A stretch of 64,000 nucleotides of DNA from Deltaproteobacteria bacterium (GCA_020632665.1 JACKFC010000008.1:71557-135556); one strand, 5' to 3'. Counted from the stretch's first letter, positions 5,957 through 48,841 are shown. Numbers and translations: made by a program. Notes: generated by a model not told the origin, from the sequence alone.

Positions 5957-6949
5957 TCAGCCGTAGAGCCGCCCAAGACCTTGCAGTGTCACGTTCGAGA
6001 GGGCGTGGTGGAGGACGGGCGCGGCGAAGTGGCGGCTGCGTTCGGCCAGCCAGGCGAAGAGCAGCCCAGGAAAAAAGACCAAGAGGCGATGCGGCGCGGG
6101 TGTGGCGGCCAAGTGTACCAGGGCGAAGAGCGCGGCGGAGAGCACGTGGGCGGCGCCGAACGGGACGCCGAAGAGCTGCCGCGACGGGGGCATCGCGGCG
6201 CGGAGTCGGCCCAGCATCCAGCCGCGGAACAGGGCCTCTTCCGGCAGAGCGACGACGATCAGCTGATCCAAGAGCAGCAGCAGCAGCCAACCGAGGCTGG
6301 CCGGGGCCTGCACCGGATTGGCATCGGCGGCGACGCGGTAGCGTCCGCGGCGGATCTGCTCGGGCGCGACGGCACCCTCGGGTCCGCGCACCGCGAAGGA
6401 GGCTGCGGCGGGACCGAGGAGTTGGTCGGAGCCACCGGGGAGCAGCCGCCGCACCGGACATGCGGCGCAATCGGGCCGCAGCTCCAGCGCCACGCTGCCC
6501 TCGTTGCGCACGATCAGGCCACCGCGACGCTCCCAGACCGTCAGCAACGCCCCCTGCGCCGGCGGCTCGGCGGGCGCTGGCGTGCCTTGGTACTCGAGCC
6601 CCGGCGAGGGGAGGCCGACGCCGGCGAAGCGGCGCTGTCCCCAGATTTCGCGGGCGACGACGTCGTAGCCCAGCGCGAAGGGGAGCAGGACGACGACGCT
6701 GACGACCAAACCCAAGCCCAGCGAGCCGATCGCCTGGCCGGGGGTCGCGCCGTAGGGGTCACCGTCGGCGCGGCCGAGGCGGGCCATCAGCAGCGGCGCG
6801 GCGAGGAAGCCCAGGGCGACCAAGGCGCCGGCGAGGCTCGCGACCGCAGGCAGCACCGAGCCTGCCCATTCGACCACGACGATCCAGACCGCCAACGTGA
6901 CGGTGACGACGACGGATTCGAGCAGCGCACGGCGCGCCGCGGGGCTCAA
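5957..6949 (-). CDS. CPBP-family intramembrane glutamic endopeptidase, myxosortase-like
   Basis: Motifs VALPEEALFRG, LFALVH, RLLVFFPGLLFAWL, HHALSN; multiple TM segments; TTGA overlap with upstream stop. Confidence 0.8.
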   Translation of the reverse strand: MSPAARRALLESVVVTVTLAVWIVVVEWAGSVLPAVASLAGALVALGFLAAPLLMARLGRADGDPYGATPGQAIGSLGLGLVVSVVVLLPFALGYDVVAREIWGQRRFAGVGLPSPGLEYQGTPAPAEPPAQGALLTVWERRGGLIVRNEGSVALELRPDCAACPVRRLLPGGSDQLLGPAAASFAVRGPEGAVAPEQIRRGRYRVAADANPVQAPASLGWLLLLLLDQLIVVALPEEALFRGWMLGRLRAAMPPSRQLFGVPFGAAHVLSAALFALVHLAATPAPHRLLVFFPGLLFAWLAERSRHFAAPVLHHALSNVTLQGLGRLYG

Positions 6950-13119: not shown

Positions 13120-16100
13120 CGAGGCCGCCTCCCTCCGGCAAGGTGCTCATCCAGTGCGCTTTCGGCTTCGGCGGTGGCTCGGGCAGCTTCAATCCGACTG
13201 TCGACCCAGCATCCCGCGACACGCCGCCACCAACGACTTCGGTATCGTCCACCGCAGTGGGATCGGCGACGAACACGGTCTTGGTAGAAACCCTCGCGTA
13301 GCGCTCCTGCCAGCCCGCGCTCTTCGTGCTCTGGATCGGCAGTAGCAGCTCATGCAAGGGCCCCGGCCACGTTGCGGAGGAGGGTAGAGTGTATGCTGCG
13401 GTCAGTCTCTTACCGAGCAAGTCCAACCACGGTCCGAATTCTCCCCACTTGGCTGCGACGCTGGGGTCGAGCAACTCTGCCTGTGCACGGCGCACAAGAG
13501 CGAGCAGGTCACCGTAGGCGCTCACGTCCGCCGTCGTCGAAAACCATAGCAAGAGAGGCTCGGCCTGCGCTTCATCCAGGTACTGAGCAAGCTCTGAATC
13601 GCTAAGCTTCTTCCACGAACTCAACGCCTTGATGAGAGCACTCGACTCCTGCTCCGCGCGCAGCGTCGCGACGGGTGGGGACCCTCCACTCCCGGGAAGC
13701 AACTCCTTGGTCCATGCAACCTCACCGTCGGGAGGGAAGCCCGGCCACGTTGGCGCGGCGGCCATCGCAACCCGCAACGGCATCGTAGCAGGACCAGACG
13801 CTGCTCCGCGCCATGGAGGTTGCGCGATCTCCGAGGCCGCGCCGGTCCAAGAGCCGGGGATACCGCCAACTGCTGGGCCGTGGACCTCGGCGCGAATCGA
13901 TGCGAGCGCTTCGAGCCGGCGGGTTGTCACATGCACGCCGCCGGCCACGGCCTGCGACGTGACCGACACCACACCAGAAACCGGCTCGTGGACGAAATCC
14001 GAATCCGCCGACGCGTTCACCCCAACAATGACACTGCCGGCTGGTGCCGCCTTGGGCCACTTCGCCGGGGGAAGGGCGAGTTCGATCGAGAGGGCGTTGC
14101 CATCGATCGCGCGGAAGCGGGCGACGACAGGATCCAGCTCCGGCGAGACGCGTGCAACCGCTTGCAAGGAAGCCGCGATTTGCTCGTTGAGGCGTTCGGC
14201 GAGTTTCTTGGCCTCATCCTTGAGATCTTCCTCGACGAAATCGAGCACAGAGTAGCTATGTAAGTCCAGAGGAAAAGGCGCGTTCGGGCGGACACGTACG
14301 TCGGTAAAGACCACGGTAGCAAACTCGGGAGGCTTTTCGCCGTCCAACGGTCCCAGCGCCGGCTTCAACTCCGCGCATAGCGACACCTCCATCAACCCTT
14401 CGCCAGACAGCCCATCTCCAACTGGAAGCAAGACCAACTTGATGTTGATTTGGGCGCCGTCCAACCCCAGGTTCTGGACGGTCACCGCGTAGGCCCCATC
14501 TTGCACTGCCTCGCGCAGCGCGCCTTCGGATGCGAACGCATCCCGAAGCTGGCCCAGTGCTTTGGCGACTCCTGCCGCAGCGAGGATTGTGAGCGGCGGC
14601 ACCGCCAGTGCCAGTGCAATAACAACTACCAAACCGAGGGAAACACCAACGAAGAGCGCGATCGCAACCAACTCCTTCGCCGGGATATCGAGTTTAGCGA
14701 ACCACTCGCTCGCGGCGAACGTCACGTTGACGGCGAGCCACTCGAATGGGCTGTCTGCGAGCTTCTTCAAGGTCTTGTGAACGCGTTGCAGACCAGACTC
14801 TGCAGCAACCGGTTCACACACACAGTCCTTGTCGCCACCAGTCTTCTCTTCGGAAACCCCGGCCGCGGGCACTTCGGCCATGTTGCGCGGAAATTCCCAA
14901 ATCATCGTCTGCTCGATGATCGCGGCGAGATAGAAGCGACCGATGTCGACGACCAGCCCCTCCGCCATCGCCTCCGCTCCAACGGCCGGGCCACCCATGA
15001 TGGGGTCCAACTGCACGTTGTCCTGGCTCAGGCGGGCCAAGAATTCCTCCAGTTCAGCTTCGACCTCCGCTTGTCGCTCGCGCTCTGCGACGGCGCTGGC
15101 CGCGCCAAGGATGGCTTGTGCCGCTTGCGCGTTGACGCCTGGTGCCAACGTGGCGAGCGCTGTGGGATTGGCAAGCCAGCTCTGGAGTTGTGCGACGTAG
15201 GCTCCGAGTGTGGACGTTTGTGGATCTAGGGACTGCGCCCCGGTCAGCGTCTGCGCAACGGACGTCCCACCGTCGAAGACGTAGGAGAAGCCCCACCACC
15301 CAGCATCTCCTGCTGCGGTCGTCAGCCTGGAATTGCCCGTCGGAAACACCCTGAGCAACGTTCGAGCTTGGTCGTCGCTAATCCCGAGATCCGCGACGCC
15401 GAGTTCATCGACGCTCATGCCCTTGAAGCTCGGACCGATGCCTTGGAAGGCGTCGAATGCAGCGTGCCGCGTCAAACCGACCGCACGCAGCATCCCACCG
15501 GCGTTGCGGGCGGCGAAACTCTCCAGCAACGAGACGACGCCATACGCCGCAGGCAACCCCGCGGCCCGGCTGGCGAGAGCGCGCAGCGCCACCGTTCCCT
15601 CTTCCCAATCCGAAGCGGGCACGCCGCTCGGAGGTGCGGTTACCCAGCCTTCTGCGTCGGAAGCCTCTGCTTTCGCAGACGGCGTACCTCCTTGGTGGAA
15701 CAGATCGACGGCCAGTTGGCTGGTCCAAACCGACCGACAGAACGATCGCCACGTCACGGCGGGGCCGAGTTCGACGCTCCCCGGACCCACTTGGTCGATC
15801 TTGCCGATGGTGTTGGCTTTGAGTCCGCCCGTTACCTCATGCACGCCGTCCATCCCGAGCCCGATGTCAAGCACCAGCCCGCTCGGAATGAACTCATCGC
15901 TGCCAACGCTCATAAGTGCGCCCTGCGGGGACGTGATCCATGCATCGCTGGCCAACGTTTGCGCGGCGTCGAGCAAGGGTATGGATGCAAGCAAGTTCAG
16001 CATCACTTCGAGCCCCAGCGGCGCAACGGTTGCCGCTTGGAATCGAGAGCTTGCCAAAACCCTGTCTGCTCGCCAACGGGAATCGATCAACCCAGAAGCA

Positions 16101-45676: not shown

Positions 45677-46495
45677 CTACAGGTCGACCAGCCGCAGCGC
45701 CGCGCCCTGCATCGGGAAGAAGCCGCTGCCGACCCGACGGAAGCGCTCGAGTCCATCGGTGGCCAGCAATTCGGTCGCGCCGCTGCCCGTGGTGGCGCTC
45801 GGGAAGCGGGTCGCCAGCTCGTCGGCGATCGCTTCGGCCGAATCGATCAGCGCGACCTCGCGGCCCAGTCGGCGACCGAGCCACGCGGCGAGCGCCTCTT
45901 TGAACACAGGGTAATGGGTGCAGCCGAGGACCAGCGCGTCGATCGCGCCGGGGCCACGGCGCTCGAGCCACGGCCCGAGGTAGGCGTCGAGCGCGGCGTC
46001 GACCAGCGGCCCGGAGAAGAAGCCCTCTTCGGCCAACCCGACCAGCAACGGCGTCGCCTTGCCGTGGACCGACGCGCCTTGCCGCAACGCTTCGATCGCG
46101 AAGGTATAGGCGCCGGAGGCGACGGTGCGCTCGGTGCCGATCACGCCGATCTGGCCGGTCGGGCTCGCGGCCACCGCGCGCCGCGCACCCGGCGCGATCA
46201 CGCCCAGCACCGGCAGGCCACACTCGGCCTCCAGGGCCGGGAGCGCGCACGAGCTCGCCGTATTGCAGGCGACCACCAGCGCGTCGGCGCCGTCCTCGCC
46301 GAGCAGGGCCCGGGCGGCTTGCAGCGCGTAGCGGGTGACGGTCTCGGCGGTCTTGGTGCCGTAGGGCAGCCGGGCGGTGTCGCCGAGGTAGCGGAGATCT
46401 GCGCCGGGCAGCCGGTCGCGCACCGCCCGGGCCACGGTCAGGCCGCCGATGCCGGAGTCGAAGATGGCGATGCGGGGTCGGTGCGCGCTCTGCAT
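45677..46495 (-). CDS. murI: Glutamate racemase
   Basis: IFDSGIGGLTV, DTARLPYG, VACNTAS, LGCTHYP. Confidence 0.95.
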   Translation of the reverse strand: MQSAHRPRIAIFDSGIGGLTVARAVRDRLPGADLRYLGDTARLPYGTKTAETVTRYALQAARALLGEDGADALVVACNTASSCALPALEAECGLPVLGVIAPGARRAVAASPTGQIGVIGTERTVASGAYTFAIEALRQGASVHGKATPLLVGLAEEGFFSGPLVDAALDAYLGPWLERRGPGAIDALVLGCTHYPVFKEALAAWLGRRLGREVALIDSAEAIADELATRFPSATTGSGATELLATDGLERFRRVGSGFFPMQGAALRLVDL

Positions 46496-46601
46496 CGGCG
46501 GAGCATCGGGACGGCGTCGGTCGCGGTCAAGGGGCGCTGGCCGGGGGCAGGCGGGGTCGCTATGCTCTGACGTCGCTCGAAGTCGGCGACGGAGGCCGAA
46601 G

Positions 46602-48290
46602 ATGACGATCGCCCGCGCACTGCTGCTCCTCACGCTGGTGGCGATCGCCGTGCCGGCGCACGCCTTCACCCTGCTCACGACCAAATCCGGCGTGCCCAAG
46701 GTCTGGCACAAGAACACGCTGCAATACCGCACGGTCTTCGACGTCGCGGCGCCCGAGCCGGCTGCGAGCGAAGGCTCGCCGATCGGCGATCGCATCCACG
46801 AGTCGATGCAGCCGTGGTCCGAGACGACCTGCGACAAGGGCGGCGACAAGGTCAGCGTCGCCATCGGCTTCGAGAAGACCGCCGCCGCCGAAGTCGCGAC
46901 CTGCCCCGAGAAGGACGATATGATGGTCTGCGCCGGCGGCGACGGCGTGGTCCGCGTCATCTCCGACGAAGCCAAGTGGCCAATCACCGACCTGACCGTC
47001 GGCTACACCCTGCTCTCGAGCAGCGGCGAGACCGGCCAGAATTCGCGCTTCGTATTGCTGCTCAACGACGCCAACTACGACTTCTGCGACACCAGCTGTG
47101 ACGGCACCGCCTTCGATCTGCGCACCGTCGTCTTGCACGAGGCGGGGCACGTCCTCGGCCTCGACCACAGCTCGTTCTCCTCGGCGGTGATGGCGGCGGG
47201 CCGGACCCCGGCAGAGATCTTGCGCAGCCCGCAAGCCGACGACCTCGCCGGCCTGTGCACCGTCTACCCGACCGGCGCCGAGCCCGAAGAGGACGGCGGC
47301 ATCTGCAGCGCCGGTCGCACCGGTCGGCCTGGGACGCTGCTGCTGCCCCTGCTCCTCGCCGCGGTCGCCCTGCTCCTGCGTCGGCGGATGGTGAGCGGCG
47401 GGGCCGGCGTCGCGCTGCTGCTGCTGCTGATCGTCACGCTGCCCGAGCCGGCGTCGGCCTATACGCTCGCCCGCAGCGCTTCGGGTGCGCACCAACGCTG
47501 GGCGGTCGCCAATATCGCTTGGGATATCGACGATCGCGGGCTGCGCGCCCAAGGCGTCGACGACGCCAGCACCGAGCAGGCGCTGCGGCAGAGCTTCGCG
47601 GCGTGGGAAGCCGTGCAATGCGAGCTCTGCCACGACCCGAAGAGCCCGGCCTGTGCGCCGGTGGCGTGCGGCGCGAACGGGCTCGGCGTCGCATTCGCGT
47701 TCGACGGCTGGAAGGCGGCCCGCGCGCCCGGTCTCGGCTGCGCGGTGCGCTGGGGCGGCGCGCCGTGCAGCGGTGTGCCCGACGGCAATCAGGTGCTCTT
47801 CGTCTACGACAAGGCAGCGTGGCCGGTGGCGAGCCACGTGATCGCGCTGACGCTGGTGGCCGCCGACAAGGCCAGCGGGCAGATCGGCGACGCCGATATC
47901 CTGGTCAACACCGCGCACAAGACCTTCTGCATCGCGCCGGCCTGCGAGCTGGGCCAGTACGACCTGCAGAATACGGTGACCCACGAGGTCGGCCACTTGC
48001 TCGGTCTGGATCACAGCGAAGACAGCAGCGCGACGATGTACGGTGGCTCACCGCCGCAGGAGGTCAGCAAGCGTGCGCTCGCCGCGGACGATATCCTCGG
48101 CGTCTGCACCGCGTACCGCACGGTCTACGATGGCGAAGGCTGCCCCGCGGTGGAGCCGGACGGCTGCTGCGCGGCGCACGGCACCGGTGGCAACGTCGCG
48201 GCCGGCGCCGGCCTCGGAACTTCGGCGCTGGCGGCGGTCTCGATCCTGGCGATCGCTTTGCGCCGCAGCACGTCGCGGGACGCGGCTTGA
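46602..48290 (+). CDS. Tandem matrixin-type (metzincin) metalloprotease with internal and C-terminal MYXO-CTERM-like signals
   Basis: Two HExxHxxGxxH motifs (HEAGHVLGLDH, HEVGHLLGLDH), each domain followed by a Cys, hydrophobic and Arg-rich tail. Confidence 0.8.
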   Translation: MTIARALLLLTLVAIAVPAHAFTLLTTKSGVPKVWHKNTLQYRTVFDVAAPEPAASEGSPIGDRIHESMQPWSETTCDKGGDKVSVAIGFEKTAAAEVATCPEKDDMMVCAGGDGVVRVISDEAKWPITDLTVGYTLLSSSGETGQNSRFVLLLNDANYDFCDTSCDGTAFDLRTVVLHEAGHVLGLDHSSFSSAVMAAGRTPAEILRSPQADDLAGLCTVYPTGAEPEEDGGICSAGRTGRPGTLLLPLLLAAVALLLRRRMVSGGAGVALLLLLIVTLPEPASAYTLARSASGAHQRWAVANIAWDIDDRGLRAQGVDDASTEQALRQSFAAWEAVQCELCHDPKSPACAPVACGANGLGVAFAFDGWKAARAPGLGCAVRWGGAPCSGVPDGNQVLFVYDKAAWPVASHVIALTLVAADKASGQIGDADILVNTAHKTFCIAPACELGQYDLQNTVTHEVGHLLGLDHSEDSSATMYGGSPPQEVSKRALAADDILGVCTAYRTVYDGEGCPAVEPDGCCAAHGTGGNVAAGAGLGTSALAAVSILAIALRRSTSRDAA

Positions 48291-48309
48291 GCGTGGTCGG
48301 CTCGTCGGC

Positions 48310-48341
48310 TGGCACGGCGTCTGATTGGCACGGCGTCTGAT
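48310..48341 (+). repeat. Direct 16-bp duplication upstream of aroQ
   Basis: TGGCACGGCGTCTGAT at 48310-48325 and 48326-48341, running into TTGACA at 48341-48346. Confidence 0.85.
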
Positions 48342-48376
48342 TGACAAAGGCGAGCCGTCTGGCGGACAAGCGCGGC

Positions 48377-48841
48377 ATGCGGATCGACGTCGTCCAGGGC
48401 CCGAATCTCAACCTCCTCGGAGCCCGGCAGCCCGAGCACTACGGCGCGGCGACGCTCGACGCGATCCACGCCGCGATGCGCCGCCTCGCCGAGGAGCTCT
48501 CGACGGCGGAAGACTGCGTCGAATTGACGTTCTTTCAGTCGAACCACGAGGGCGAGTTGATCGACCGACTGCAGGCGATGGCGTCGGAGGTGGACGCTTT
48601 CATCCTCAACGCAGCCGGGTATACTCATACCAGCGTCGCGTTGCGTGACGCGCTGATCGCATCGGGGCGACCTGCGGTGGAAGTCCACCTCAGCAACGTC
48701 CACGCGCGCGAGCCGTTCCGGCACCGCTCGCTCCTCGCCGACGTGGCGAAGGGCAGCATCGTCGGACTGGGAGCGCGCGGCTATTTGCTCGCATTGCGAG
48801 CCTTGGTCGAAGAGCTGCGCGGGGTGCAGCTCCTGTCTTGA
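48377..48841 (+). CDS. aroQ: Type II 3-dehydroquinate dehydratase
   Basis: GPNLNLLG.R.P..YG, QSNHEGELID, NAAGYTHTSVAL, EVHLSNVHAREPFR. Confidence 0.96.
   Translation: MRIDVVQGPNLNLLGARQPEHYGAATLDAIHAAMRRLAEELSTAEDCVELTFFQSNHEGELIDRLQAMASEVDAFILNAAGYTHTSVALRDALIASGRPAVEVHLSNVHAREPFRHRSLLADVAKGSIVGLGARGYLLALRALVEELRGVQLLS

Follow-up and report, generated by a model that had tools for sequence, protein, structure and literature searches.

An in-frame fusion of two paralogous matrixin-like proteases as a candidate secretory polyprotein in Myxococcota

MYXO-CTERM tails are C-terminal sorting signals that are cleaved by MrtX (Guo, Haft and Wall, mBio 2025; PMC11980579). In the sections of that paper drawn on here, cleavage and lipidation at the cysteine, together with surface localisation, are demonstrated for TraA of Myxococcus xanthus only, and MXAN_5598 of the same species is described as having an internal MYXO-CTERM signal, with its N-terminal part proposed to be processed. 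The present analysis concerns a gene in which a signal of this kind lies between two proteases. It occupies positions 46602–48290, plus strand, of a 64,000-nucleotide stretch of DNA from a Deltaproteobacteria bacterium (GCA_020632665.1, JACKFC010000008.1:71557-135556), called the window throughout, and is a genuine in-frame fusion that evolution has kept. It joins two paralogous units, and a unit consists of a signal peptide, a matrixin-like protease and a MYXO-CTERM-type tail. The host is an uncultured freshwater myxobacterium, represented by a metagenome-assembled genome (MAG) that is 67% complete.

The closest precedent is MXAN_5598, and here too a MYXO-CTERM signal lies inside an open reading frame (ORF), is followed by an exported module and derives from the joining of two genes. 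According to the same sections of PMC11980579, MXAN_5598 combines an adhesin with an outer-membrane beta-barrel/OmpA module and such cases are rare, whereas the present gene joins two paralogous proteases. These sections discuss neither an internal signal peptide nor a signal-peptidase step for MXAN_5598, whereas here there is a conserved A-x-A site followed by an aromatic residue. In addition, the present gene carries a sorting tail on each half, is found in three genera, has lost the internal start in several orthologues and belongs to a recurrent fusion (at least 53 clusters). Relative to MXAN_5598, the new elements are the paralogous protease pair, the conservation of both signals, the age and recurrence of the fusion, and the decay of the internal start. 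The supplement of PMC11980579 holds no entry for MXAN_2677, MXAN_2678 or MXAN_5598.

The first two of these loci, which are consecutively numbered in M. xanthus, give their name to the curated family NF041905 (the MXAN_2677/MXAN_2678 family of myxosortase-dependent metalloproteases). Genes of this type often form tandem pairs in Myxococcota, each gene with its own signal peptide and Cys/transmembrane/Arg tail, whereas both members of the present pair are encoded in one ORF. A second point of comparison is provided by viral membrane polyproteins of the type found in the flavivirus structural region. In these, stop-transfer and signal sequences alternate along the chain, so that it passes to and fro through the translocon, and the host signal peptidase cuts it on the exoplasmic face, at internal signal sequences. 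Those operate in the eukaryotic endoplasmic reticulum, whereas the present chain would be inserted into a bacterial inner membrane and would depend for its second cut on a sorting protease of the CPBP type, acting at a lipidated cysteine. Literature searches, which were incomplete in coverage and so are not proof of absence, found nothing on fused tandem sorting-tagged proteases joined by a hairpin of tag and signal peptide, and nothing relevant on bacterial polyproteins cut by signal peptidase or on internal signal peptides.

Translation of the window gives a single ORF of 562 codons plus a stop, and the elements that the earlier note on this DNA had read from it in one frame are all found where it placed them:

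46602–48290, plus strand: fused double protease precursor, whole ORF; the same Met start is present in P0004, a 92%-identical database protein.
46602–46664, plus strand: N-terminal Sec-type signal peptide, amino acids (aa) 1–21, MTIARALLLLTLVAIAVPAHA/FTL (...VPAHA/FTL), with n-, h- and c-regions and A-x-A by inspection.
46665–47273, plus strand: protease domain 1, matrixin-like, aa 22–224 (PF00413; Foldseek matches of the modelled domain to matrix metalloproteinase (MMP) catalytic domains).
47136–47168, plus strand: domain 1 zinc motif HEAGHVLGLDH, aa 179–189, with Met-turn M197.
47295–47387, plus strand: internal MYXO-CTERM sorting signal, aa 232–262, GGIC235SAG, transmembrane helix and RRR (TIGR03901, TIGR03382).
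47388–47459, plus strand: predicted internal signal peptide or re-initiation helix, aa 263–286, MVSGGAGVALLLLLIVTLPEPASA/YTL; cleavage by signal peptidase I is predicted between A286 and Y287.
47460–48137, plus strand: protease domain 2, matrixin-like with a Cys-rich insert, aa 287–512 (PF00413; NF041905 below its cut-off).
47982–48014, plus strand: domain 2 zinc motif HEVGHLLGLDH, aa 461–471, with Met-turn M479.
48159–48287, plus strand: C-terminal sorting-type tail, aa 520–562, DGC522CA, transmembrane helix and RR (tripartite features by sequence inspection).

The internal tail reads GGICSAGRTGRPGTLLLPLLLAAVALLLRRR, of the form GGICSAG...LLLAAVALLLRRR, and is followed directly by the ATG at 47388, which opens MVSGGAGVALLLLLIVTLPEPASA. 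By inspection, this region has the layout of a signal peptide, with RRR as the basic n-region, GVALLLLLIVTL as the hydrophobic core and small residues at –3 and –1 in PEPASA/Y. The C-terminal tail reads DGCCAAHG...AAVSILAIALRRSTSRDAA, ends in ILAIALRR and is followed by the stop codon at 48288–48290. When the two halves are aligned with each other, they are paralogous from end to end (30% identity, E 1e-27). The alignment takes in the tails and also the signal peptides, the N-terminal one of domain 1 matching the internal one. The repeated unit is therefore the whole of signal peptide, protease and sorting tail.

Both halves score as matrixins. PF00413 (Peptidase_M10) scores 39.7 bits for domain 1, 45.2 for domain 2 and 80.9 for the whole protein, each half thus exceeding the gathering cut-off of 24 bits. 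Residues H179, E180, H183, H189 and M197 of domain 1 are invariant across 17 orthologues, as are the catalytic residues and M479 of domain 2. An AlphaFold2 model, computed from a 17-sequence alignment, has a mean predicted local distance difference test (pLDDT) score of 72.6 and contains two confident domains, at approximately 22–224 and 287–508, with helices at 247–263, 269–278 and 537–561. Compared with the PDB by Foldseek, the domains find the catalytic domains of MMP-3, -2, -7, -12 and -13 and of karilysin as top matches (probability 1.00, target TM-score 0.64–0.74), in agreement with sequence searches, which match karilysin and MMP-12. Among NCBIfam models the best match of both halves is NF041905, for which the curated equivalog cut-off is 250 bits. 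The whole protein scores 143.9 bits, domain 2 alone 107.3 and domain 1 alone 45.6; the fused protein is thus related to this family, and by its curated rule is not a member.

With matrixins in general (MEROPS M10A, PF00413), including the bacterial karilysin, the two domains share the HExGHxLGLxHS zinc motif, the Met-turn and the MMP catalytic fold. Unlike MMPs of the animal type, the fused protein has no hemopexin domain, and a cysteine-switch propeptide (PRCGxPD) is absent from both halves, the catalytic domain beginning directly after the predicted signal peptide. It would also differ from other matrixins in that its mature N-terminus would come from signal peptidase and its anchoring to the membrane or surface is predicted to occur through a sorting tag; a further difference is the Cys-rich insert of domain 2.

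In addition to naming the elements, the earlier note had pointed out a TGA in another frame at 47392–47394 and had left two choices for the ORF, a fusion of recent date or an error in the sequence. The TGA is present and overlaps the ATG at 47388. If one G is removed from the CGGCGG near 47385, the first gene would end as ...LLLRRRW-stop, overlapping the ATG, and the source is a MAG of only 67% completeness, so that a 1-bp indel joining two overlapping genes, or a very recent loss of the stop, has to be weighed. The distribution of the fused frame speaks strongly against this. When 41 related genomes were searched in six frames with the whole query, it was recovered in one stop-free frame in seven: G001 from the same genus (63% identity), G012, G019 and G024 from a second genus (54–57%), and G011, G018 and G023 from a third (43–47%). 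The fused gene is flanked by murI and aroQ in all seven, and the public records of these genomes are of MAGs that stem from projects unrelated to each other; they carry the label Myxococcales or Myxococcota, or a wrong one. Genomes and protein database together give 17 fused orthologues at 39–92% identity. Junction lengths vary among the orthologues by whole codons, frame 0 is open in every one, and the G+C content at third codon positions in the coding frame is held at about 0.9 through the junction, with its phase continuous. With the same frame recovered from independent assemblies of three genera (39–63%), in-frame junctions of differing length, and domain trees that mirror each other, an artefact or a very recent stop loss can be given almost no credence. 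That a fusion is real and conserved is close to certain, and since 17 orthologues share the arrangement, as do dozens of proteins at a greater distance, it lies far beyond chance. On whether orthologues are split or fused, as the earlier note had asked, the 17 orthologues are fused, and split tandem pairs occur in other lineages.

Several of the MAG records with orthologues (loci L028–L030) bear the title “uncultured Enterobacteriaceae bacterium” or the title “Klebsiella pneumoniae”; these look like taxonomic mislabels.

The history of the gene can be followed at the murI–aroQ site. In further genera of this family, the site holds just one protease domain, a homologue of domain 2 that carries a signal peptide and a tail of its own. 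In the domain tree, domain 2 nests among these single-domain genes, domain 1 belongs to another clade, and the subtrees of the two domains in the fused proteins have the same two-branch shape. As the subtrees mirror each other and domain 2 sits among single-domain genes, the sequences point to a single old fusion, inherited vertically since.

Given a fused frame, the evidence on processing comes from the junction. Overall it is weakly conserved, with a mean column identity of about 0.34 in the 17-sequence alignment. A small set of positions stands out from this background: G233 and C235 (17/17), A237 (16/17), R260 and R262 (15–16/17), Ala at –3 (16/17, with one Val), Ala at –1 (16/17, with one Gly), and an aromatic residue at +1 in 17/17 (F in 10, Y in 5, W in 2). 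In the C-terminal tail, C522 and R555 are invariant in the 17 orthologues. The conserved junction positions are exactly those that processing would need. The invariant aromatic +1 further suggests that the exact new N-terminus is important for the enzyme; an aromatic +1 is present in both halves and, judged by eye, also in most stand-alone homologues after small-x-small. Activated animal MMPs begin with Phe or Tyr, which the predicted aromatic N-terminus would resemble; in the comparison with the MMP N-terminus, the HMMER alignments to PDB chains stop short of that end.

An automated cleavage-site picker was also tried on the stand-alone homologues. It gave a count of 13 of 36, was often a few residues off and was set aside as unreliable, so that the count is not used.

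The junction also bears on how domain 2 is made. The halves could in principle be synthesised separately, by internal initiation at the ATG at 47388 or by ribosomal frameshifting into the TGA at 47392–47394, leaving the fused frame a formality. A Met is retained at the junction in the host's own genome, in P0004 and in some orthologues, and the overlap of TGA and ATG would suit such an arrangement. In the absence of an in-frame stop, however, each ribosome that finishes domain 1 continues into domain 2. In three orthologues (L004, L006 and L008), the stretch from the Arg cluster up to the hydrophobic core is devoid of ATG, GTG and TTG, so that domain 2 can be made there with a complete signal peptide only by translation of the fused chain. 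The off-frame stops are missing altogether from L004 and L006 and are not conserved in position elsewhere, for which reason frameshifting or termination at the junction was rejected, and a slippery heptamer is not evident in the junction DNA. Separate synthesis is consequently regarded as improbable.

A further requirement of processing is a sorting enzyme, and one is encoded in the window:

5957–6949, minus strand: gene for a myxosortase-family CPBP intramembrane protease, candidate for both tails (PF02517, 60.2 bits at 5990–6289).

This protein scores 109.3 bits with NF040914 (Mrt_core), above the cut-off of 100. The genome as a whole holds four CPBP-family genes and at least 12 MYXO-CTERM matches, three of which are internal and followed by a new signal peptide. 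With cut-offs of 20 bits for TIGR03901 and 15.85 bits for TIGR03382, the internal tail of the fused protease (aa 232–262), scanned alone, scores 22.7 and 20.1 bits, so that it passes both; in a six-frame search of the genome TIGR03901 finds it at exactly 47295–47387, with 20.4 bits.

These observations can be brought together in a mechanism in which an out-in-out precursor, inserted by Sec, would be cut by myxosortase and signal peptidase I into two lipid-anchored proteases. Here, the N-terminal signal peptide would take domain 1 through Sec, and the helix of the internal MYXO-CTERM would act as a stop-transfer segment (N-out, C-in). The Arg-rich loop would be kept in the cytoplasm, matching the positive-inside rule, and the next hydrophobic segment would be an internal signal (N-in, C-out) that restarts the translocation of domain 2, with the C-terminal helix as a second stop-transfer segment. 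A cut by signal peptidase I after A284-S-A286 would leave domain 2 with a free aromatic N-terminus, Y287. At each of the sorting cysteines, C235 and C522, lipidation would presumably come first and the cut by the myxosortase-family CPBP protease second, as is proposed for TraA in the consulted sections of PMC11980579, and a type II secretion system could deliver both proteases to the surface, as is published there for MYXO-CTERM proteins. The expected products are two lipid-anchored surface proteases of approximately 22–25 kDa and a discarded hairpin of approximately 50 residues. The topology, the two cleavages, the lipidation and the export to the surface are predictions from sequence, and the mechanism in full is considered fairly probable. 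In its favour are the conserved processing residues, the disappearance of the internal start from several orthologues, and a gene for a myxosortase-family enzyme in the genome.

Several findings weigh against this mechanism. Within the full protein, the internal tail scores only 14.8–16.2 bits against the TIGR03901 cut-off of 20, and the tail precedes 300 further residues instead of lying at the extreme C-terminus, as is expected of a MYXO-CTERM signal. The C-terminal tail (aa 520–562) reaches 8.2 bits with the same model, which is below the cut-off, although the Cys/transmembrane/Arg layout is present. The CPBP protease is under the cut-off of every subfamily, MrtP, MrtC, MrtX and MrtZ; the closest is MrtP, known from the Bradymonadales type, with 166.7 bits where 250 are required, and the protein may represent an additional myxosortase subtype that has an N-terminal region of its own. 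A search of the host's own 67%-complete assembly, G000, with TIGR02227 found no signal peptidase I. As three fusion-carrying relatives (G001, G012 and G011) have the gene, this result is put down to incompleteness, and the gene probably lies in the missing third of the genome. Finally, signal peptides and helices were judged by inspection, hydropathy and an AlphaFold2 model in which the junction is of low confidence (pLDDT 27–59).

Some of the same findings would fit a simpler fate, in which the chain is exported and left uncut, or cut at one site only, and the hairpin is a two-helix anchor in the inner membrane that joins two periplasmic protease heads. The hairpin is topologically fully adequate for this, and a C-terminal tail that is a weak MYXO-CTERM match is in keeping with it. 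A plain anchor, however, has no need for an invariant Gly-Cys, small residues at –3 and –1 and an aromatic +1, yet these are kept while the rest of the junction drifts, and the same columns form the cleavage site and sorting motif of the stand-alone homologues. An uncut or partly cut anchor is thus rated unlikely, while carrying appreciable weight. Processing into two proteases is the best-supported reading, given the processing residues kept, the loss of starts and the cognate enzyme family. In this the polyprotein proposal of the earlier note is supported; its closing choice between a recent fusion and an error is refuted.

The arrangement extends beyond the orthologues. In a survey of 80 related loci, with one genome per species and 3-kb flanks, 11 are fused (six orthologues together with L033, L039, L045, L054 and L102) and 15 consist of two separate genes in tandem on the same strand, with ends that usually overlap or abut; the remaining loci have one zinc motif inside the flanks. 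Fused genes have split sisters in several places: L054 with L031; L033, L045 and L102 with L037, L060 and L089; and P0038 and P0040 with L095. Because fused clades have split pairs as sisters, fusion seems to have been repeated independently, and the tree implies at least four such events.

One split pair, from a MAG of an uncultured Myxococcaceae (L070), consists of tandem protease genes at 2–1162 and 1166–2080, in the same frame and with a single stop between them (...LAWGRRRRA-stop-TMLPAGLLLL...). A single substitution would therefore make the fused form.

Across 31 fused proteins from several clades, the junction follows a near-universal grammar: G-C-[S/A/T], a spacer of 4–17 residues, a hydrophobic helix, a basic loop, a second hydrophobic segment, and small-x-small followed by F, Y or W. 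The basic loop has 3–45 residues and a charge of +2 to +13, and in most of the 31 it lacks Met. A profile search of 1.84 billion protein representatives (50% identity clusters) was then used to gauge how widespread the form is. Among the best 150 matches, 61 proteins have at least 447 aa, and 56 of these contain two zinc motifs; by a simple pattern, a Cys-helix-basic-helix junction separates the motifs in at least 53 of the 61. The locus is a real candidate for a bacterial secretory polyprotein and not a unique example. For annotation, the at least 53 clusters, each recorded as a single “hypothetical” or “Zn-dependent protease” ORF, probably represent two mature proteins each.

A more far-reaching idea is that the hairpin of tag and signal peptide is a reusable polyprotein linker of Myxococcota that has been selected, and not a tolerated scar of fusion. 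One Sec substrate and two housekeeping membrane proteases would then yield equimolar, co-localised surface proteins, here paralogous proteases working together. The 1:1 stoichiometry and co-delivery would explain the repeated origin, the decay of internal starts and the three internal tags out of 12 in the genome; the idea is nonetheless offered tentatively, as a possibility on the doubtful side. Should the predicted cuts indeed take place, genuine secretory polyproteins would exist in bacteria, and a C-terminal sorting tag placed back to back with an N-terminal signal peptide would be a self-contained cleavable linker run by ordinary membrane enzymes. The myxosortase pathway would then reach internal substrates, on which there is so far a single published remark in the consulted parts of PMC11980579, and the gene would be a clean natural test case for sorting tags that work away from the C-terminus. 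It would also suggest a simple means for the fixed-ratio display of two proteins from one gene.

Two other internal MYXO-CTERM signals occur in the host genome. The first, on contig C65 at 64685–64777, minus strand (locus L107, with the orthologue in L108), reads ...SGCTAGSRPGGSQALWLLLIVAAGWALLRRRR/SATPMVLLIMLATGLLLQPASASA/VNLVANPGAEG..., with a new signal peptide in frame. Its ORF of approximately 1400 aa consists of repeated modules resembling carbohydrate-binding modules, has paralogous halves and ends in a second Cys/transmembrane/RRK tail. The fused junction is also present, without Met, in the sister genome G001, and the halves are at separate loci in G012. The second, on contig C39 at 14665–14760, plus strand (locus L115), reads DGGCSATGGG...LAVLGLRR; a lipoprotein-type signal peptide, MSRIRGFRGAAPSLRALLMLLAAVVSGC/ADD, comes directly after the tag and is followed by a giant RCC1-repeat protein. 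This fusion has no close homologue in 12 relatives.

In the immediate surroundings of the double protease gene, a scan of 46300–48500 gave no promoter or terminator matches. The short spacer between the protease stop and aroQ contains a perfect 16-bp tandem duplication (TGGCACGGCGTCTGAT twice, at 48310–48341 of the window); no terminator-like hairpin was found in this spacer. The start of aroQ follows at 48377, where the sequence reads MRIDVVQGPNLN.

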